A DNA stretch of 64,000 nucleotides, taken from NCBI GenBank assembly GCA_028716565.1, contig JAQUPL010000003.1, forward strand, positions 66,029-130,028, given 5' to 3'. Source of the stretch: Candidatus Omnitrophota bacterium (GTDB lineage Bacteria > Omnitrophota > Gorgyraeia > Pluralincolimonadales > Pluralincolimonadaceae). The position numbers were made by a program, and so were the translations under genes. The notes below the pieces were generated by a model that was not told the DNA's origin, searched no databases, and worked only from the letters and a program-made list of their open reading frames with translations. This document shows, one piece after another, positions 5,559 to 27,885 of the stretch (positions are counted from its first letter, which is position 1; each line of letters begins with the position of its first letter).

Positions 5559-7085
5559 TTGGAAAACCCGGTTATTTTAGAGACTAAGAACATCACGAAA
5601 GACTTTCCCGGCGTCCGCGCCCTGGACAGCGTCTCTTTCCAGCTTAAGAAAGGCGAAGTCCTGGGATTGGTCGGCGAGAACGGTGCCGGTAAATCTACCC
5701 TCATGAAGATATTCAGCGGCGCGTATCCCGCCAACACTTACGACGGCGAGATCTCCATAGAGGGCAAGCGCTGCATTTTCAACGGCCCGAAAGATTCCCA
5801 GGGCGCCGGCATAGCCATCATCTACCAGGAATTGAACCTCATCCCCGAGCTTACGGTCGCGGAAAATATATTTTTAGCCCGCGAGCCGACGGTCGGAAAG
5901 ACAGACATCGTCGACCGTAAAAAACTTTTCAGCCAGGCAAAAGACCTGCTCGACCTGCTGAATATCCCCATACCCGCCCAAGAACAAATAAAGAACCTGA
6001 GTATCGGCAAGCAGCAGATGGTCGAGATAGCAAAGGCCCTCTCCTACCAGGCGAAGATCCTTATCCTCGATGAGCCGACGAGCGCCCTGACCGAGCAGGA
6101 AGTCGAAGTCCTCTTGAAATTGATAGATTCGCTGCGCGCCCGCGGCGTCAGCATGATATATATCTCACATAAACTCGACGAGATATTCAAGATCACCGAC
6201 ACCGTGACCGTGATGCGCGACGGAAAGACCGTTGCCTCCAGGCGCACCCCTGAATTGGGCCGGCAGGAGATGGTCGCGCTCATGGTCGGCCGGAACATAG
6301 AAGATATGTATCCCAAGAAAGCTGCCGCGGAAGGCGATGTAGTCCTGGAAGTGAAAAATCTGTTTGTTTCCCACCCATTCCTTGCCGGGGAAAAAGTGGT
6401 CAAAGATGTGAGTTTTAAAGTGAGAAAAGGGGAGATACTCGGGATATCCGGCCTGATGGGCTCGGGCAGGTCTGAATTGGTCACTTCGATCTTCGGCGCA
6501 TTCCCCGCGGATTCAACCGGAGAGGTGCATATCGGGGGCAAACAAGTCAAGATACGCTCCCCGTATGAGGCGATAAATTACGGCCTCGGGCTGGTGACCG
6601 AAGACCGCAAGTTATTCGGCCTCGTCCTCGGAATGCAGGTAGGGGAGAATATCACGCTCTCCTGCCTGGAAAAATTAAGCTGGCGCCAGATAATAATGCG
6701 GCGCCGGGAAAATGAGTTGATAAACAAATATATAGGCGCCTTGAGGGTAAAGACGCGCAGTTCGGAGACGGTAGTCAATACGTTGAGCGGCGGCAACCAG
6801 CAGAAAGTCGTCATCGCCAAATGGCTCGCCACCAATCCCAAAATTCTTTTACTGGACGAGCCGACGCGCGGCGTGGATGTCGCCGCGAAAGCCGAGATAT
6901 ACCAATTGATGACCAATCTTGCCGGCGAAGGATTGGGTATAGTCATGGTCTCCTCCGACCTTCCCGAAGTAGTGAGCATGAGCGACAGGATACTGATAAT
7001 GCACGAGGGCCGGATGGTAAAGGAACTGCAAAAAAATGAAGCCACGCAGGAGAAGATAATGTTCTACGCGACGGGGGGCAAATGA
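5559..7085 (+). CDS. sugar ABC transporter ATP-binding protein (duplicated ATPase, RbsA/MglA type)
   Basis: Two Walker A motifs (GENGAGKST; GLMGSGRSE), two ABC signatures (LSIGKQQ; LSGGNQQ), two Walker B (ILILDEPT; ILLLDEPT). Confidence 0.85.
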   Translation: MENPVILETKNITKDFPGVRALDSVSFQLKKGEVLGLVGENGAGKSTLMKIFSGAYPANTYDGEISIEGKRCIFNGPKDSQGAGIAIIYQELNLIPELTVAENIFLAREPTVGKTDIVDRKKLFSQAKDLLDLLNIPIPAQEQIKNLSIGKQQMVEIAKALSYQAKILILDEPTSALTEQEVEVLLKLIDSLRARGVSMIYISHKLDEIFKITDTVTVMRDGKTVASRRTPELGRQEMVALMVGRNIEDMYPKKAAAEGDVVLEVKNLFVSHPFLAGEKVVKDVSFKVRKGEILGISGLMGSGRSELVTSIFGAFPADSTGEVHIGGKQVKIRSPYEAINYGLGLVTEDRKLFGLVLGMQVGENITLSCLEKLSWRQIIMRRRENELINKYIGALRVKTRSSETVVNTLSGGNQQKVVIAKWLATNPKILLLDEPTRGVDVAAKAEIYQLMTNLAGEGLGIVMVSSDLPEVVSMSDRILIMHEGRMVKELQKNEATQEKIMFYATGGK

Positions 7086-8203
7086 AAAACCAGGGTAAAA
7101 GCGGCATCGGCCGGGTCATCATCGGGAAATACGGCAATTTAATAGGCCTTGTTGTTTTGATAGTCCTGACGACGATATTGACGAACGGCATGTTCTTTAC
7201 CCAGAGGAACCTTATTAATGTCCTGCGCCAGGTATCGGTGAACGGCATACTTGCCGTCGGCATGACGCTGGTCATCATCACCGGCGGCATCGACCTGTCT
7301 GTAGGTTCTGTGGTGGCCCTGACCGGCATCATCGCGGCGTTGCTGCAGCCGCAAGGGACCGCGGCGGCGATCGTCCTTACCCTGTTGGCAGGAGCGGCGA
7401 TCGGAGGATGTAATGGTTTCTTCGTAACGAAATTCAGGATACCCTCATTTATCATTACCCTGGGCATGATGACGATCGCCAGGGGCCTTGCCTTGGTATT
7501 TTCAAAGGGCGAGGCGATATCAGGGCTTAACGACAGCTTCTCGGCTATAAGTGAAAGTTATATTTCTCCGTCCGTCTCCCTTACGGTCTTTGCCTTTCTA
7601 GCTCTCCTTACCGTATTCTTATTTGTTAAAGAAAGAAAAAGCTCAGGATACGAAAGAAAAATATTTACTTTCAATTTTATCGGCGCGATGAGCATCCTGT
7701 TTATTGCGGCTGCCGTCGCCGTCCTGGTATGGCTGATAGGGTTCCGCGGCATGCCCGCCGGTGTCGCGGTGTTTTTAGGTATAGCGTTCCTCGGCGCTTA
7801 TACGCTTAACCAGACGAGGTTCGGCCGTTATGTATATGCTATCGGAGGCAATGAAGAGGCGTCGCGGCTCTCCGGCATAAACGTCAAACTGGTCAAGTTC
7901 CTGGTCTTTCTCATCATGGGCGTCCTGGCCGCGGTCTCGGGCATGGTCCTGGCCGCGCGCCTTAATTCCGGCGTCCCGACTTCGGGAGTGATGTTCGAAT
8001 TGGACGCCATCGCCTCGGTCGTCATAGGCGGGACAAGCCTCTCCGGCGGTTACGGCAGCGTCGGCGGCTCGATAATAGGCGCTTTTATAATCGGGACGCT
8101 GAATAACGGGATGCAGCTATTGCACATAGATCCTTTTTACCAGGAGATCGCCAAGGGCGTCATAATCATAGGCGCGGTCCTGATGGACAGGAAAAAGAAG
8201 TAA
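7082..8203 (+). CDS. sugar ABC transporter permease (RbsC family)
   Basis: Multi-TM protein translationally coupled (ATGA overlap) to the ATPase gene; carries an extra AT-rich internal segment near 7560-7700. Confidence 0.75.
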   Translation: MKNQGKSGIGRVIIGKYGNLIGLVVLIVLTTILTNGMFFTQRNLINVLRQVSVNGILAVGMTLVIITGGIDLSVGSVVALTGIIAALLQPQGTAAAIVLTLLAGAAIGGCNGFFVTKFRIPSFIITLGMMTIARGLALVFSKGEAISGLNDSFSAISESYISPSVSLTVFAFLALLTVFLFVKERKSSGYERKIFTFNFIGAMSILFIAAAVAVLVWLIGFRGMPAGVAVFLGIAFLGAYTLNQTRFGRYVYAIGGNEEASRLSGINVKLVKFLVFLIMGVLAAVSGMVLAARLNSGVPTSGVMFELDAIASVVIGGTSLSGGYGSVGGSIIGAFIIGTLNNGMQLLHIDPFYQEIAKGVIIIGAVLMDRKKK

Positions 8204-21971: not shown

Positions 21972-22901
21972 ATGGCAAACTTAAAAGAACTTAATAAGAG
22001 AAAAGAGCTACTCTCCGGCGGGCACAGGATGTGTGCGGGCTGCGCATCTCCCATAATCGTAAGGCAGATGGGCCTGTCACAGGAGATGCCGTTAGTTGTG
22101 GGAAGCGCTACGGGCTGCCTCGAAGTCTCGACGACGCCGAATCCTTTTACGGCATGGAACTCGAGCTTTGTGCATTGCGCTTTCGAAAATTCCGCCGCCA
22201 CCGTTTCAGGAGCTGAAGCGGCATACAGGTCGTTAAGGCGCCGCGGCAAGGTAAAGGAAGAGATGAGGTTTGTCGCGCTCGGCGGCGACGGCGGCACGTA
22301 TGATATCGGACTGCAGTCGCTTTCGGGCATGCTTGAGCGCGGCCAAAGGATCTTGTATCTTTGCTACAATAACGAAGCTTATATGAATACAGGCGTCCAA
22401 CGTTCAAGCGCCACGCCTATGGGAACCCAGACGACAACAGCGCCGGTCGGCAAGCAATCCATCGGGAAAAAACAGTTCCCGAAGGACTTGACAGGCATAG
22501 CGGTAGCGCATAGAATACCCTTTGTCGCGACGGCGAGCCCCAGCCACTGGAACGACCTTATAACAAAGTCGCAGAAGGCGCTTTCGGTAGACGGGCCCGC
22601 TTTCATGAACGTCATATCGCCGTGCCCGTTAGGGTGGGCTTATCCGTCGGATAAGACGATAGAGATAGCGAAACTCGCGGTCGATACATGCTTCTGGCCG
22701 CTCTACGAGGTTGAGAACGGCAATGCCTGGAAGCTGAGCTATAAGCCGGCCGCCAAGAAGCCGATCACGGATTACCTCAAAGCGCAGGGCCGTTTCCGCC
22801 ACCTGTTAAGGCCGGAGAACGCTTCTGTGGTCGAGGAGATCCAGAAGAGGATAGACGACGATTGGGCCGCGCTGTTGAAACGCTGCGGCGCTGAGGCATA
22901 A
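21972..22901 (+). CDS. porB: 2-oxoacid:ferredoxin oxidoreductase beta subunit (TPP-binding)
   Basis: Cys motif near the N-terminus (CAGCASP...) and the TPP-binding GDG-x-TYDIG region. Confidence 0.8.
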   Translation: MANLKELNKRKELLSGGHRMCAGCASPIIVRQMGLSQEMPLVVGSATGCLEVSTTPNPFTAWNSSFVHCAFENSAATVSGAEAAYRSLRRRGKVKEEMRFVALGGDGGTYDIGLQSLSGMLERGQRILYLCYNNEAYMNTGVQRSSATPMGTQTTTAPVGKQSIGKKQFPKDLTGIAVAHRIPFVATASPSHWNDLITKSQKALSVDGPAFMNVISPCPLGWAYPSDKTIEIAKLAVDTCFWPLYEVENGNAWKLSYKPAAKKPITDYLKAQGRFRHLLRPENASVVEEIQKRIDDDWAALLKRCGAEA

Positions 22902-22925
22902 TATAGAGCAGCACCGTTCTTTGTG

Positions 22926-22942
22926 AAATATCCGCTCCCCTG
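22926..22942 (+). repeat. direct repeat copy 1 (AAATATCCGCTCCCCTG) = duplicated upstream/5' end of tRNA-Asn
   Basis: Identical 17-mer recurs at 23286-23302, where it forms the tRNA-Asn 5' end; a second shared block TAGCTCAGTTGG sits at 23020-23031. Confidence 0.7.
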
Positions 22943-23044
22943 CCCCGAATGTAGTGTTTCGTGGTAGAATATCTTCGGGGTGCCGAAGCGAGAACATCTA
23001 TGAGCTACTTCATTCGGCATAGCTCAGTTGGGATCATTGGAAAT

Positions 23045-23305
23045 ATGCATTATGTTTACATATTAAAAAGTAACAGCTCTGGAAGATATTATATTGGTGA
23101 AACAAGTAATATCGATAGAAGATTATCAGAGCACAAAGAGAAGAAGAGTAGTTTTGGTAAAAGAAATTGCGATTTAGTTCTTGTCTATAGCAGAGAATTT
23201 CACAACAGGACAGAAGCTCGTAAGTTTGAGAATTTCCTGAAACGGCAAAAGAGCCGGACGTTCATTGAAAGATTAGTTTCAAATAAAATATCCGCTCCCC
23301 TGTAG
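23045..23305 (+). CDS. small GIY-YIG nuclease family protein (COG2827-like)
   Basis: YVYILKSNSSGRYYIGETSNIDRRLSEHKEK...RTEARKFENFLKRQK is a GIY-YIG core; the last 7 codons and the stop are encoded by the tRNA-Asn 5' sequence. Confidence 0.6.
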   Translation: MHYVYILKSNSSGRYYIGETSNIDRRLSEHKEKKSSFGKRNCDLVLVYSREFHNRTEARKFENFLKRQKSRTFIERLVSNKISAPL

Positions 23306-23604
23306 CTCAGTTGGTAGAGCAGTGGACTGTGCAAGGCGCAGCTTCTACAGGAAACTGTAGTTGAAAAAGCAGGAGAATTGTCCGCAGCGTAGTATTAGCT
23401 GACGGAGCGCCGCAGATGTGGCGTCTGGAAGCCCCTCTGGGGTAATCAGCAGCCGAGCCCTTTAGAAATAAAGGGAAGGTTCAGAGACTATGCACCTGCC
23501 TCCTAAACGTAAAGCCGTAGGAGATGATATAGTCCAAGTCCGGTAGCAATACCGGGTCACTTGTAATCCACGTGTCCCTGGTTCGAGTCCAGGCGGGGGA
23601 GCCA
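23296..23604 (+). tRNA. tRNA-Asn(GUU) interrupted by a 233-nt intron-like insertion in the anticodon loop
   Basis: 5' exon 23296-23330 is TCCCCTG-TA-GCTC-AGTTGGTA-GAGC-A-GTGGA-CTGT. 3' exon 23564-23604 is TAA-TCCAC-GTGTC-CCTGG-TTCGAGT-CCAGG-CGGGGGA-G-CCA. The joined exons closely resemble canonical bacterial tRNA-Asn. Confidence 0.6.
23331..23563 (+). ncRNA. putative group I intron within tRNA-Asn
   Basis: Insertion after a U of the anticodon loop and ending in G; possible P1 pairing exon CUGU with intron GCAG (U-G at the splice site); no ORF inside. Confidence 0.5.
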
Positions 23605-23613
23605 GTTTGAAGA

Positions 23614-23649
23614 CCCTCTGCAATTAAACATTGCGGAGGGTTTTTGTTT
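23614..23649 (+). terminator. Rho-independent terminator after tRNA-Asn
   Basis: CCCTCTGCAA-loop-TTGCGGAGGG followed by TTTTTGTTT. Confidence 0.55.
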
Positions 23650-23725
23650 ATTAGGCGCGATTTTAGAGTAGAAATGATATAATAGTAAAAAGTGAAGTCG
23701 TTTTTTGTTTATAGGGAGAGAAGCA

Positions 23726-24271
23726 ATGAATCAGCAGACAAGAAGAATAGATTATGCTTGGGCTAGATTTTGGGCGAGATTCATAGACTACTTTCTTTTC
23801 GTTTTCATATTAATTGGGATATTTTATTTTATTAATGATTCTATCTATGGTTTTCCAAGCACTAAACCAGGATTTAGATTTGCAGAGCTATTCGTATGGG
23901 TTTTTATAGAATCTCTCTTGCTTTCGACGTGGGGCGCTACGCCTGGCAAATGGCTCTTAAATATAACCGTCAGAGATTCAAATGGACAAAAACTTAGATA
24001 TTTAGCTGCATTAAAAAGAAGTTTAAAGGTTTGGATAATTGGGCTTCTAACGGGATTTAGCTTTCCACTCAGTTTTTTAGCAATGTTTTTTAACAATCAA
24101 GCGATTAGCAATAAGGGAGTTACAATTTGGGATCGTGAGGGGCAATTTGTGATCTTGCATAGAAAGTTTAGCCCATTTAAGTTTTTCCTGGTAGCCGTAT
24201 TTATAGTTATAGCCGTTTTAATTTATTTGTTTCTGTTTCTTTGTGACAATTGGTCAATGAGGATTACATAG
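23726..24271 (+). CDS. RDD family membrane protein
   Basis: N-terminal R...AxxxD pattern (RFWARFIDYF) and multiple TM helices; strong RBS AGGGAGAG; AT-rich gene. Confidence 0.5.
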   Translation: MNQQTRRIDYAWARFWARFIDYFLFVFILIGIFYFINDSIYGFPSTKPGFRFAELFVWVFIESLLLSTWGATPGKWLLNITVRDSNGQKLRYLAALKRSLKVWIIGLLTGFSFPLSFLAMFFNNQAISNKGVTIWDREGQFVILHRKFSPFKFFLVAVFIVIAVLIYLFLFLCDNWSMRIT

Positions 24272-24330
24272 CTTCATCAGAGTGTAACCAGTTGCGAAAT
24301 TCGTCCAACACAGGGAGCCATCTTTGAAGA

Positions 24331-24360
24331 AAAACCCATCCATTAAGGATGGGTTTTTTA
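24331..24360 (+). terminator. Rho-independent terminator
   Basis: ACCCATCC-ATTAA-GGATGGGT followed by TTTTTT. Confidence 0.55.
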
Positions 24361-24520
24361 TTGTCGAGCCCCCGCTTTCGCAGAGAAGCTGCAGTTAACC
24401 ATTGAAACTCGGCAATCCAAAGCGTATAATTTAAGCCAGTAAAGTGCCCCCTTTTAGGACGGCACTAAAATGGTATAAAGTTTATGATCGGAAATCAATA
24501 AGGGGCAAGTTTAAACAAAC

Positions 24521-25888
24521 ATGAAAAGCGATTTTAAATCCCAGATCCTGAAAGAAATCGAAGACTGGCAAAAAGAAGGTTTGATTTCGGCTGAACAAGA
24601 AAAAAATTTAACTTCAAGATATAGCCTTCCGGAAATAGCGTCGGAAAAATCCGCTTTGGCGAAGATCATTACTTTTTTGTCTATTTTCGGTTCAATTTTA
24701 GTGGGGATAGGGGTAATTTTATTTTTTGCTTCAAACTGGCGGGGGATTTCCAAGCCGGTAAAATTATTACTGATCTTATCAAGTATTTTTGCAGCTTATT
24801 CAATAGGTTACACCTTAAGCTACATCAGGGAAACTTATTCAAAAACCGGAAAAGCGATTATTTTATTAGGCTCGATCCTTTTCGGGTCCGGGATATACTT
24901 AGTGGCCCAGATCTATCATTTTCCGGCCAATTATCCCGCCGGCGTGTTATTTTGGTCCTTGGGCATATTGCCGCTCGCCTATATCTTAAGATTAAACCCG
25001 ATTTTATTTTTGAGCAGTATTTTATTGATACTGTGGAATATTTTACGTTTAACGGGACTAGATCAACCGAATTATTTTTACCTGATATTTCTTGGTTTAA
25101 TTTTCTATCTTACTTATAAAGCAAAGTCCAGCCGCATAATCTTTACCAACCTCGTGGGTTTTATAATTTGGTTGATGTCTTACCTTTATTTTTGGAATCG
25201 CGGATTTGATACACATGCCAGCGTTGTAGTGCTTCTAAATCTTGGAATTTTATTTTATATTTTAGGCAGAGTCCATGAAACAAATCTTAACCTAGGCAGG
25301 CTTAAATATTCTTATAAGTTCTTAGGGATCGCTCTTATGTTTTTCAATACTTACCTTCTGACGTATGATAATGTTTATGAGGCCCATTACTCGATTCTTG
25401 GCCGTGAGTTCCCTGGAATTATGGTCGTCAATTTTGCCATCGTAAGTTTAACTTTCACGGTCTTAGCGGTATTTTCTTTTAAGAACTGGGGAAAAAATAA
25501 AATCGTCCGTTATGAATCCTGCGCCCTTTTGATCGTTATATTACTAAGCATGACGACTTTAATCTTTCCCGAAGCCTCGATGAGACACAATCATTACAGA
25601 AGCGAGGAATTTTTATTCTATCCTTTTATCTTTAATCTTGTTTTATTATTAGAAATAATCGGGGTGATCGTATTGGGTTATTTGTTTAAAGAAATCAGTT
25701 TAGTAAATTTAGGCATTTTATTTTTTGTTATTCAAATATTAACACTCTATTTTAGCGTTTTTTGGAAATTGATGCCGCGGTCGCTATTCTTTATTTGCGG
25801 AGGTTTAATCCTTTTATTGGGCGGCGGCTATTTAGAAAAGAAACGGAAAGATATCATTATTAAGATTAAATCCGGAGAAGCATCATAA
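24521..25888 (+). CDS. DUF2157/DUF4401-like polytopic membrane protein
   Basis: Soluble N-terminus LKEIEDWQKEGLISAEQ followed by ~12 TM helices; AT-rich; immediately followed by a GDYXXLXY-type gene, the usual partner. Confidence 0.5.
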   Translation: MKSDFKSQILKEIEDWQKEGLISAEQEKNLTSRYSLPEIASEKSALAKIITFLSIFGSILVGIGVILFFASNWRGISKPVKLLLILSSIFAAYSIGYTLSYIRETYSKTGKAIILLGSILFGSGIYLVAQIYHFPANYPAGVLFWSLGILPLAYILRLNPILFLSSILLILWNILRLTGLDQPNYFYLIFLGLIFYLTYKAKSSRIIFTNLVGFIIWLMSYLYFWNRGFDTHASVVVLLNLGILFYILGRVHETNLNLGRLKYSYKFLGIALMFFNTYLLTYDNVYEAHYSILGREFPGIMVVNFAIVSLTFTVLAVFSFKNWGKNKIVRYESCALLIVILLSMTTLIFPEASMRHNHYRSEEFLFYPFIFNLVLLLEIIGVIVLGYLFKEISLVNLGILFFVIQILTLYFSVFWKLMPRSLFFICGGLILLLGGGYLEKKRKDIIIKIKSGEAS

Positions 25889-26638
25889 ATGAGCCAGAAA
25901 CTTAAATTCTATATTGTTGTTGCTATGCAGATCAGTTTTATTCTAGGAATGGTTATTTTCCATCAGTTAACAATAGTATCAGGCCAAAAAATATTTTTAA
26001 AGGCTACCCCTGTAGATCCTCTGGACTTATTTCGCGGATATTATGCGCATATTAATTATGATATCTCCAGGGTTTTAATAAGCCAGATAAATATAGATAG
26101 GGAAGATCTTAGGAACGGGGAATATATTTATGCTATTTTAACTAAAAACCCGGAAGAGAAATTTTACAAAGTTAGCGCTATAAGTCATAAGAAACCTTCG
26201 CTAAAAGCAAGTGAAGTCATTGTGAGGGGCAGGATCCAATATTTTCATAATAAAACCACAAGCAAGATTTGGATGCAAACAGAAGAAGGAAAAGTAAGGG
26301 AACGCGAGGAACCATGGAAGTCATACCTTAGACCCGGTGATGAGGTAGTGATCTTTTTAGCTGAAGACGGACAAATTAGATATGTTTCCCGCAAAGAAAA
26401 AAATTTTGTACCTCCTAAGAACCAGAAAGTCGAATACGGTAAAGTAATAAGAATCGAAGAAAAGAAAGACATGGAGTTAAATATTAAATACGGTATTGAA
26501 AGTTATTTTGCCGAAGAAACAAAAACGTTGGAAATCTCGCGGGCACGAAGAGAAGCAGATCTTTATGCGGAGATTTCCTTGAGTAAAGAAGGCCGCGCCT
26601 TGATCAGTCGCATTTTCTTAAACGGCGAACCCCTCTAA
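25889..26638 (+). CDS. GDYXXLXY-like domain protein
   Basis: N-terminal TM anchor, then PVDPLDLFRGYYAHINY resembling the DP-x-DLFRGDYxxLxY signature; ATGA-coupled to the upstream membrane protein. Confidence 0.45.
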   Translation: MSQKLKFYIVVAMQISFILGMVIFHQLTIVSGQKIFLKATPVDPLDLFRGYYAHINYDISRVLISQINIDREDLRNGEYIYAILTKNPEEKFYKVSAISHKKPSLKASEVIVRGRIQYFHNKTTSKIWMQTEEGKVREREEPWKSYLRPGDEVVIFLAEDGQIRYVSRKEKNFVPPKNQKVEYGKVIRIEEKKDMELNIKYGIESYFAEETKTLEISRARREADLYAEISLSKEGRALISRIFLNGEPL

Positions 26639-26682
26639 ATATTGTGCGTCAATGGTTATCGTCTAAACAGAAAGGACCAGCC

Positions 26683-27264: not shown

Positions 27265-27885
27265 ATGTGGTATATTTATATATTGAAGTGCAGGGGAGGG
27301 ACTTTATACACGGGCATGACCAAAGATCCGGAACGCCGCTTCAAAGAACATCTGAGCGGGAAAAGCCGTTACACCAGCTACAACCGGCCCGTATGTTTAG
27401 TATATAAAGAGGAATATCCGACCAGGTCCGCGGCGGCGAAACGCGAGGTCGAGATCAAGACCTGGCCGCGCAAGAGGAAGCTCGCGCTCATTAATAAGGA
27501 TAAGGATCTCAAGGAGGCAGGGATGAAAAAAATAATGGCAGCGGCCGCGATATTATGCCTCACGGCGAGTTGTTTCGCGGTAACCCCTTCCCAGCAAAAA
27601 ATGGAACGTGAAGCTTTGGTGGGAGATGATCAGTCGGCAGGGCTTTCCGGGGAAGAGGCGCCCCTCGTGACATTGGCCGGTGAAATAGTCTCGATCAAGA
27701 GGTCGCTCAATAAGATCACGGTCAAGGACCAGAATACGAGCACCGAGAAGGAATTTACCGTAAAGTCTGAAGATATCAAGTCGTTCAAGCTCGGAGATAC
27801 TGTCGAGGTCAAATACAGGCCCGGCTCAGGCGTTGCCGAGAGTATTACGGCCGCGAAACCCTTGCAGCCGTTACCGGCGTACTAA
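27265..27885 (+). CDS. GIY-YIG nuclease domain (27265-27522) in frame with a downstream lipoprotein module (27523-27885)
   Basis: YIYILKCRGGTLYTGMTKDPERRFKEHL...RSAAAKREVEIKTWPRK is a GIY-YIG core with no stop codon before MKKIMAAAAILCLTASC (lipobox); the lipoprotein has its own AAGGAGG RBS and ATG at 27523. Confidence 0.45.
   Translation: MWYIYILKCRGGTLYTGMTKDPERRFKEHLSGKSRYTSYNRPVCLVYKEEYPTRSAAAKREVEIKTWPRKRKLALINKDKDLKEAGMKKIMAAAAILCLTASCFAVTPSQQKMEREALVGDDQSAGLSGEEAPLVTLAGEIVSIKRSLNKITVKDQNTSTEKEFTVKSEDIKSFKLGDTVEVKYRPGSGVAESITAAKPLQPLPAY

Follow-up and report, generated by a model that had tools for sequence, protein, structure and literature searches.

The stretch analyzed here, referred to as the window, comprises 64,000 nucleotides (64 kb) of contig JAQUPL010000003.1 from a Candidatus Omnitrophota bacterium and contains, between the porB gene and a tRNA-Asn gene, a small open reading frame (ORF) encoding a GIY-YIG nuclease enclosed by two copies of the tRNA-Asn 5' region. 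Positions are given in window numbering, all features of the locus lie on the + strand and L-numbers designate loci of relatives. As an earlier note on this DNA had pointed out, the 17-mer AAATATCCGCTCCCCTG occurs at 22926-22942 and again at 23286-23302; these were its only two sites in the window, and a search allowing up to three mismatches returned no further copy in the 64 kb, where 0.22 were expected by chance. The 12-mer TAGCTCAGTTGG, corresponding to tRNA-Asn positions 8-19, was also found at two sites only, 23020-23031 and 23303-23314. Joined together, the 17-mer and the 12-mer make a 29-nt repeat composed of a 10-nt leader and tRNA-Asn positions 1-19. The repeat is uninterrupted in the functional gene (23286-23314) and is split in the upstream copy, after tRNA position 7, by a 77-nt insert (22943-23019) that separates an exact 17-mer from an exact 12-mer. 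The insert, hereafter hp, consists of hairpin 1 (CCCCGAA...TTCGGGG, 22943-22980) and hairpin 2 (TGCCGAA...TTCGGCA, 22981-23019). The upstream region is indeed a broken duplicate, as had been proposed, covering the leader and tRNA positions 1-19 and not the first ~29 nt of the tRNA: the tRNA-Asn starts at 23296, not at 23286, and of the 17-mer only the last 7 nt (positions 1-7) belong to the tRNA 5' end. The window contains a single hp copy, and no pseudo-copies were found at its three other tRNAs. The interrupted partial copy together with the ORF is called the cassette in the following.

The ORF (23045-23305) encodes 86 residues and terminates within the tRNA. Its last 10 nt (T CCC CTG TAG) coincide with tRNA positions 1-10, the TAG stop being positions 8-10. 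The stop had been correctly located inside the tRNA, whereas the seven terminal codons assigned to the tRNA 5' end reduce to six: the 17-mer plus TAG reads as six codons and a stop (K I S A P L *), and the tRNA part amounts to 10 nt. The tRNA-Asn gene contains an intron, as the earlier note had stated. Joining the 5' exon (23296-23330, positions 1-35) to the 3' exon with its encoded CCA (23564-23604) returned a canonical 76-nt tRNA-Asn(GUU) with ARAGORN, which missed the unspliced gene because a group I intron interrupts it. This ORF-less intron (23331-23563, Rfam RF00028) lies in the anticodon loop, outside the cassette and next to it. A promoter-like site, TTGAAA-16-CATAAT (22875-22902, 10/12 consensus matches), overlaps the porB end, precedes the entire unit and is a putative promoter on the basis of its sequence; a terminator-like hairpin with a T run, detected by sequence scan at 23608-23646, closes the unit. 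The two leader copies are identical within a genome and differ between genomes (ATATCCGC in the window, ATTTCCGC in L001), a pattern compatible with recent integrations that occurred separately or with continuing exchange between the two repeats.

The protein was then characterized by profile searches, structure prediction and comparison with its relatives. The ORF matched the Pfam GIY-YIG family PF01541 with E=2e-16 (60.4 bits, cutoff 22.6), and residues Y5, Y16, G18, R26, H30 and E62 were invariant across 15 relatives; the catalytic residues, the equivalents of I-TevI Y6, Y17, R27 and E75, are intact. An AlphaFold2 (AF2) model with a pLDDT of 92.3 showed the order beta-beta-alpha-alpha-beta-alpha-alpha, and Foldseek placed the UPF0213 proteins BH0048 (1zg2) and EF2693 (1ywl) at the top of its structural neighbours, followed by Slx1, the I-TevI catalytic domain and UvrC. 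Sequence similarity to BH0048 and EF2693 was also detected by phmmer (E=1.7e-6 and 3.7e-5, respectively). Both sequence and fold thus assign the protein to the UPF0213, or prokaryotic Slx1-like, minimal GIY-YIG proteins, which stand alone with about 80-110 residues. The whole family comprises 3026 representatives (50%-identity clusters, E<=1e-3), and nearly all of the 150 matches listed of these 3026 are 80-130 residues long; the exact window protein has no database record. The 86 residues account for the catalytic domain and a short helix, with no linker and no C-terminal DNA-binding domain. The TIGR01453 profile of intron- and phage-type GIY-YIG endonucleases gave 20 bits vs a cutoff of 56, the match being confined to residues 3-35. 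The ratio of nonsynonymous to synonymous divergence (dN/dS) between the window and L001 was ~0.2, a sign of purifying selection on the protein. Slx1, the closest structure with a characterized function, is a structure-selective nuclease, and the likeness to it would by analogy fit a hairpin or cruciform substrate. A second GIY-YIG ORF occurs in the window at 27265-27885 (+, 206 residues), whose first ~80 residues form a GIY-YIG domain (profile E=1e-17), the reading frame continuing into a tail that resembles a signal peptide or lipoprotein; no tRNA adjoins the ORF and no hairpin motif accompanies it.

The loci of relatives were collected by protein similarity alone, blind to tRNA or hairpin context. 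The nearest proteins (54-92% identity) came from metagenome-assembled genomes (MAGs) of Omnitrophota, and all Omnitrophota loci found in this way (L001-L016) showed the same series of a partial tRNA-Asn 5' copy, a two-hairpin insert, the ORF and an intact tRNA-Asn that overlaps or abuts the ORF stop. The insert follows tRNA position 7 in the window, L001 and L002 and tRNA position 19 in L006 and L014; L013 carries inserts at both 7 and 19, i.e., two hp in one pseudo-copy, and L020 looks, from its sequence, like a deletion between two such inserts. The partial copy of L014 extends to tRNA position ~32 and includes nearly the entire 5' exon.

Empty sites were reached through homologues of the upstream gene porB (81-90% identity). 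The arrangement that the earlier note had proposed to look for, porB directly followed by tRNA-Asn, exists in L158 (porB 82% identical), where the tRNA starts 25 nt after porB and where ORF, partial copy, hairpins and intron are all missing. L156 (porB 90%) and L160 (porB 81%) are empty as well, the native leader with its TATAAT box continuing directly into tRNA-Asn; in the empty sites of the relatives this box lies 6-7 nt upstream of tRNA +1. The sequence GTTCTTTG preceding the pseudo-copy was considered as a remnant of an earlier GIY-YIG C-terminus and this was rejected; it is the native upstream region, since L156, an empty site, has this flank directly next to its intact tRNA. The contigs of several relatives (L156, L157, L159 and L160) end within a few hundred bases after porB, close to where hairpin and tRNA lie, and L013 is masked there by a run of N (2860-2958); the repeats may be the cause of these breaks in MAG assemblies. 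Inteins (Intein_splicing, LAGLIDADG) occur in several Omnitrophota porB homologues (L013 1-2612, P0025, P0031, P0038 and P0039), and the window porB has none.

Comparison of the window with L001 returned dN 0.10 and dS 2.0 for porB (~75% nucleotide identity) vs dN 0.04 and dS 0.20 for the GIY-YIG ORF, with 90-97% nucleotide identity over 22970-23329. The cassette is far less diverged than the host genes and was therefore shared much more recently, which makes it horizontally mobile. The GC content of the ORF (34%) also differs from that of its neighbourhood (52-58%). A vertically inherited, domesticated gene had been suggested by the amino acid identity of the nuclease, which tracks that of porB and recR, and was dropped on the basis of dS and nucleotide identity. 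Precise empty sites and an age below that of the flanks, both read from sequence comparison, thus support the mobile cassette that the earlier note had suspected.

The same note had linked this mobility to homing of the group I intron, a link that did not hold. The intron at 23331-23563 scored 52.5 bits vs a gathering threshold of 50 with RF00028 (E=7e-12), starts after U and ends in G, and its removal restores the canonical tRNA-Asn(GUU). The cassette occurs beside an intron-less tRNA-Asn in L006, L009 and L076, and the intron occurs without cassette in L156 and L160, where it carries its own HNH ORF of 116 or 90 residues (introns at L156 3631-4145 and L160 3457-4045). The intron is longer in L001 (5287-5576) and absent in L006 and L158. 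Since the two distributions are independent, the TIGR01453 score is below threshold and a DNA-binding domain is absent, the sequence data indicate that the intron is not homed by the GIY-YIG enzyme and that this gene is not its homing endonuclease. As intron presence, length and HNH ORF vary between relatives, tRNA-Asn is the target of at least three independent mobile elements.

Scanning metagenomes with an alignment of the proteins extended the analysis to 80 loci with 36-60% identity. A same-strand tRNA adjoined the ORF in 58 of the 80 loci and an opposite-strand tRNA in none; about half of the loci with no adjoining tRNA stop at a contig edge. The tRNA types were Phe (36), Asn (12), Lys (4), Pro (3), Met (2), Val (2) and Gln (1). 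Direct repeats of tRNA pieces flank the ORF on both sides and show two geometries: in the window type an interrupted 5' fragment lies upstream of the ORF and the intact tRNA downstream, and in the other type the order is reversed, the ORF being preceded by the intact tRNA and its terminator and followed by a 3' fragment that bears the interruption. Units also form tandem arrays, up to five units long, in L097, L101, L107, L023 and L031. The hairpin motif TCCCG-N3-30-CGGGA occurred 71 times in 31.8 kb of ORF flanks vs 2 times in 160 kb elsewhere, a ~180-fold enrichment, and the TCCCG...CGGGA hairpin was present at 51 of the 80 loci. It replaces a tRNA loop or a whole arm, namely positions 57-61 in Phe and 15-17 or 54-56 in Asn, and stands in for the anticodon arm at tRNA-Lys and for the D arm at tRNA-Pro, positions 26-42 and 11-25 being among those replaced. 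The fragment in L131 is still called as a tRNA, and those in L129 and L153 miss only the anticodon arm. One cluster of this wider family carries the source name Aquaticitalea (Flavobacteriaceae). In several lineages the TAG stop derives from a conserved tRNA motif, U8-A9-G10 in the window (23303-23305) and the D-arm sequence GGTAGAGC in L129 and L153 (1745-1760). A more distant GIY-YIG ORF lies 5' of tRNA-Ser(GCT) in L046 (reverse strand, ~6900-7500 of the oriented locus), where partial tRNA-Ser copies on both sides of the ORF are interrupted by another kind of two-hairpin module (TCCCGCCGAAGGCGGGA ... TCCCGCAGTAGGCGGGA). These loci apparently represent a widespread and undescribed family of selfish cassettes at tRNA genes that leave the tRNA intact; no prior description was found in the openly accessible literature, with searches for the literal hairpin strings included.

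In order to follow the 77-nt insert beyond the window, a pattern derived from its conserved core was searched in contigs representing one genome per species. The search returned 59 hp stretches, nearly all in MAGs of Omnitrophota or PVC, and showed that the window insert belongs to a repeat dispersed through Omnitrophota. Some genomes are multi-copy, with hp on up to eight contigs of one MAG, and copies lie in intergenic DNA, some nested within one another. The RNase P RNA genes of two Omnitrophota MAGs (L052 6520-6967 and L059 7104-7598) hold an antisense hp and measure 448-495 nt vs 367 nt for the model. In 17 of ~55 copies, hp interrupts a partial duplicate of one end of a tRNA (Asn, Arg, Thr, Pro, Val, Met or Ile), with the intact sequence 39-493 nt further on, and the insertion point is always a G^T step at position 7/8 or in the D-loop. 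In the 16S-23S spacer of L021 (1880-2100), a hp in reverse orientation splits a partial 5' tRNA-Ile copy shortly before the genuine tRNA-Ile; after this partial copy comes sequence complementary to its own start. This opposite orientation refuted the rule, considered at one stage, that the intact copy is invariably found on the right of hp. No Rfam family matched hp.

The two-hairpin pairing was satisfied in 99.4% of cells and the sole free closing pair covaries (U-A 45, C-G 10), a test of limited power since the search pattern itself fixed the stem sequences. A single long hairpin in place of two was rejected, its extended pairs being only 40-50% paired and the discriminating positions favouring two, although the minimum free energy fold prefers the long single form. 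The hp 77-mer opens with TCCCGAA...TTCGGGA, the same stem as the wider-family hairpin, and can be read on this basis as an elaborated doublet of the TCCCG...CGGGA module.

The cassette was compared with known systems of mobile and repeated DNA. Free-standing GIY-YIG homing endonuclease genes, such as the Seg genes, are likewise lone GIY-YIG genes beside tRNA genes, selfish and polymorphic for presence and absence. Seg proteins are phage gene products of ~200 residues or more with DNA-binding domains, and to our knowledge Seg genes leave no duplicated, hairpin-interrupted copy of the target. In contrast, the cassette protein is a bare 86-residue catalytic domain encoded in bacterial chromosomes with no tblastn match in the phage collection. 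As with homing elements, precise empty sites and an element younger than its flanks were found, and the cassette works most like a free-standing homing-endonuclease gene, yet it fails the tests of I-TevI/Seg profile, domain composition and intron co-occurrence. Among the Seg genes of T-even phages, SegB in the T4 tRNA gene cluster has been reported to promote segmental amplification (PMC2330249, PMC13096335), which recalls the tandem arrays of tRNA cassettes.

The UPF0213 proteins BH0048 and EF2693 resemble the cassette protein in size, fold and detectable sequence similarity. Dunin-Horkawicz et al. 2006 (PMC1564403) assigned these stand-alone prokaryotic GIY-YIG domains to the Slx1 cluster, and a word search of that article returned no mention of an association with tRNA genes, a hairpin or a duplicated tRNA fragment. 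Integrase islands and prophages at tRNA genes share with the cassette an insertion that brings a replacement piece and so leaves the tRNA intact, and a partial tRNA copy marking the other end; direct repeats of tRNA sequence and a regenerated intact tRNA, characteristic of integrative elements, were both observed. Unlike these islands, the cassette has a single-ORF cargo and a hairpin-split partial copy, targets the 5' end (in the window) and lacks a recombinase: between the repeats no tyrosine or serine recombinase was found, the 86-residue ORF being the only one. The REP/REPIN-RAYT systems are similar in their short palindromic doublets, dispersed and nested, and in an enzyme gene flanked by the repeat. 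Dispersed palindromic doublets in several copies per genome are present here too, but the gene associated at the locus has the GIY-YIG and not the HUH/Y1 fold of RAYT, is tied to tRNA genes and is horizontally mobile. Finally, in collaborative homing an ORF-less group I intron cooperates with an adjacent free-standing endonuclease, as for the cyanophage psbA intron and F-CphI. The window shows a similar juxtaposition of ORF-less intron and free-standing nuclease gene, whereas cassette and intron are distributed independently among the relatives.

Taken together, we consider it probable that the locus holds a selfish nuclease-only cassette at the tRNA-Asn 5' end, integrating and excising by recombination through tRNA sequence. 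The cassette has two parts, a minimal Slx1/UPF0213-like GIY-YIG gene and an incomplete duplicate of its target tRNA, into which a palindromic hairpin module specific to the family is set. The essential tRNA is never lost because the ORF is bracketed by the interrupted fragment and a complete functional gene in the same sense. This architecture was directly observed, and from it we infer the following process. The unit of interrupted fragment and ORF would recombine into a resident tRNA gene via the shared tRNA sequence, in a Campbell-type or ends-in event, and a crossover on the side of the hairpin that leaves the gene intact would produce the observed structure; the two geometries would correspond to crossovers left and right of the hairpin. 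Recombination between the repeats would lead to precise excision, giving empty sites, or to amplification, giving arrays. The structure-selective nuclease might trigger this recombination through cleavage at the hairpin or cruciform or at the equivalent site of a naive tRNA gene. With the cassette placed downstream of the native promoter region and ahead of the tRNA, the nuclease is probably translated from the 5' leader of the pre-tRNA, whose cleavage by RNase P would strip the message of its stop codon; a leader transcript cut by RNase P suggests a tight limit on nuclease expression. In Omnitrophota the hairpin module is the 77-nt doublet, which has in addition become dispersed as a non-autonomous repeat and is possibly mobilized in trans.

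Going further, we tentatively entertain a new class of element, in which an 80-100-residue Slx1-like nuclease acts on its own hairpin planted in a copy of the target tRNA. The universally conserved tRNA sequence would provide homology arms that travel with the element, or would guide it as DNA or RNA, so that the element could invade the same tRNA elsewhere without inactivating it and expand in tandem, while in Omnitrophota REPIN-like doublets would be mobilized in trans. We regard this more elaborate proposal as possible and rather doubtful in its entirety.

Several observations weigh against the selfish cassette. Its mechanism is deduced from the architecture of the loci. The intact tRNA of the filled site keeps an uninterrupted target sequence, creating an immunity problem for simple homing by cutting of the empty allele. 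Homology on the productive side is short (17-35 nt), marginal for RecA-dependent recombination. The hairpin lies at 7/8, at 19/20 or at both (L013) in a pattern that departs from the protein tree, so at least some hairpin insertions were separate events. A tblastn search of the window protein against phage and plasmid collections returned no match and so no hint of a transfer vehicle. The same arrangement lacking a GIY-YIG gene, which the earlier note had regarded as speaking against insertion of a nuclease cassette, does exist in part, as interrupted and intact copies at ~10 other tRNAs with no detectable GIY-YIG remnant; when such hp-only tRNA loci were considered as decayed cassettes and scanned with a nucleotide profile of the ORF, a remnant was detected in L023 only.

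These same tRNAs bearing hp in the apparent absence of the gene are favourable to a REPIN/RAYT-like explanation, according to which a resident GIY-YIG nuclease mobilizes hairpin replicators that favour tRNA-like sites, the tRNA duplications are by-products or survivors and the nuclease gene itself is immobile. The dispersal of hp in multiple and nested copies, even into RNase P RNA genes and the rRNA spacer, its presence beside every Omnitrophota GIY-YIG gene, its two alternative sites, or both, in the same pseudo-copy and the amino acid identity of the nuclease, which roughly follows the neighbouring genes, all agree with this view. However, an immobile gene is at odds with empty sites devoid of both gene and pseudo-copy and with a cassette dS ten times below that of the flanking gene, and outside Omnitrophota the hairpin is almost confined to the cassette, with only the 2 motifs in 160 kb elsewhere. 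Moreover, strand transfer would be required, and we know of no hydrolytic GIY-YIG enzyme that performs it alone. We therefore hold this explanation to be unlikely. The variable position of hp against the protein tree, with two hp in the single pseudo-copy of L013, and the many hp sites unrelated to GIY-YIG genes would also suit two unrelated events, namely insertion of the nuclease gene with a long target duplication and later arrival of a repeat, resembling a miniature inverted-repeat transposable element or a repetitive extragenic palindrome, in the dead copy as the only tolerant place. Such a coincidence appears very unlikely, because the identical stem recurs in a hairpin beside related nuclease genes of distant lineages, in which this hairpin is not dispersed (~180-fold enrichment, 51/80 loci), and because hp is present at all Omnitrophota loci collected by protein similarity.

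A role of the hairpin-bearing fragment as RNA was also weighed, either as a tRNA-like leader controlling processing or expression of the nuclease mRNA and the tRNA or as a tRNA-like scaffold or guide RNA that would bring the nuclease to the matching tRNA gene. The replacement of a loop or arm by the hairpin leaves some copies cloverleaf-like (L131, called as tRNA, L129 and L153), the fragment is identical to the resident tRNA though non-functional as such and belongs to the same transcription unit, and the flanks of hp pair in L141 and L021. Against this, the window region folds no better than shuffled sequences (z = -0.9), the 3' or 5' tRNA half is absent from most fragments, the 86-residue catalytic domain has no obvious RNA-binding module and covariation does not separate an RNA hairpin from a DNA palindrome, which makes an RNA role quite improbable. 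As for a classical GIY-YIG homing endonuclease collaborating with the tRNA-Asn group I intron by cutting the intron-less gene, the proximity of the gene to an ORF-less intron and the weak N-terminal matches to homing-endonuclease models are outweighed by cassettes at intron-less tRNA-Asn genes, by cassette-free introns with their own HNH ORF, by the score of 20 bits vs 56 and the missing DNA-binding domain, and by wider-family relatives at many intron-less tRNAs; the probability of this explanation is minimal.

On the 3' side, the tRNA-Asn is directly followed by a 3-kb AT-rich block (23650-26650; GC 31-41% vs 52-58% around it) encoding an RDD-family protein and large membrane proteins. The block may be an island at the 3' side of the tRNA; an att-like repeat of the tRNA 3' end bounding it was looked for and not found.

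Small proteins annotated as GIY-YIG nuclease family or UPF0213-like number in the thousands in bacteria and have no known role. The locus described here gives part of this family a concrete biology, as the engine of tiny selfish cassettes at tRNA genes, and there is a real chance that these represent a new class of element. The cassette arrangement accounts for tRNA gene fragments beside tRNAs in MAGs and may account for contig breaks there, and the overlaps between ORF and tRNA may be treated as errors by annotation pipelines. If true, our interpretation would describe a minimal transfer of DNA between genomes, achieved by a structure-selective nuclease, host recombination and the conservation of tRNA sequence, and would tie this nuclease family to the birth of dispersed hairpin repeats.

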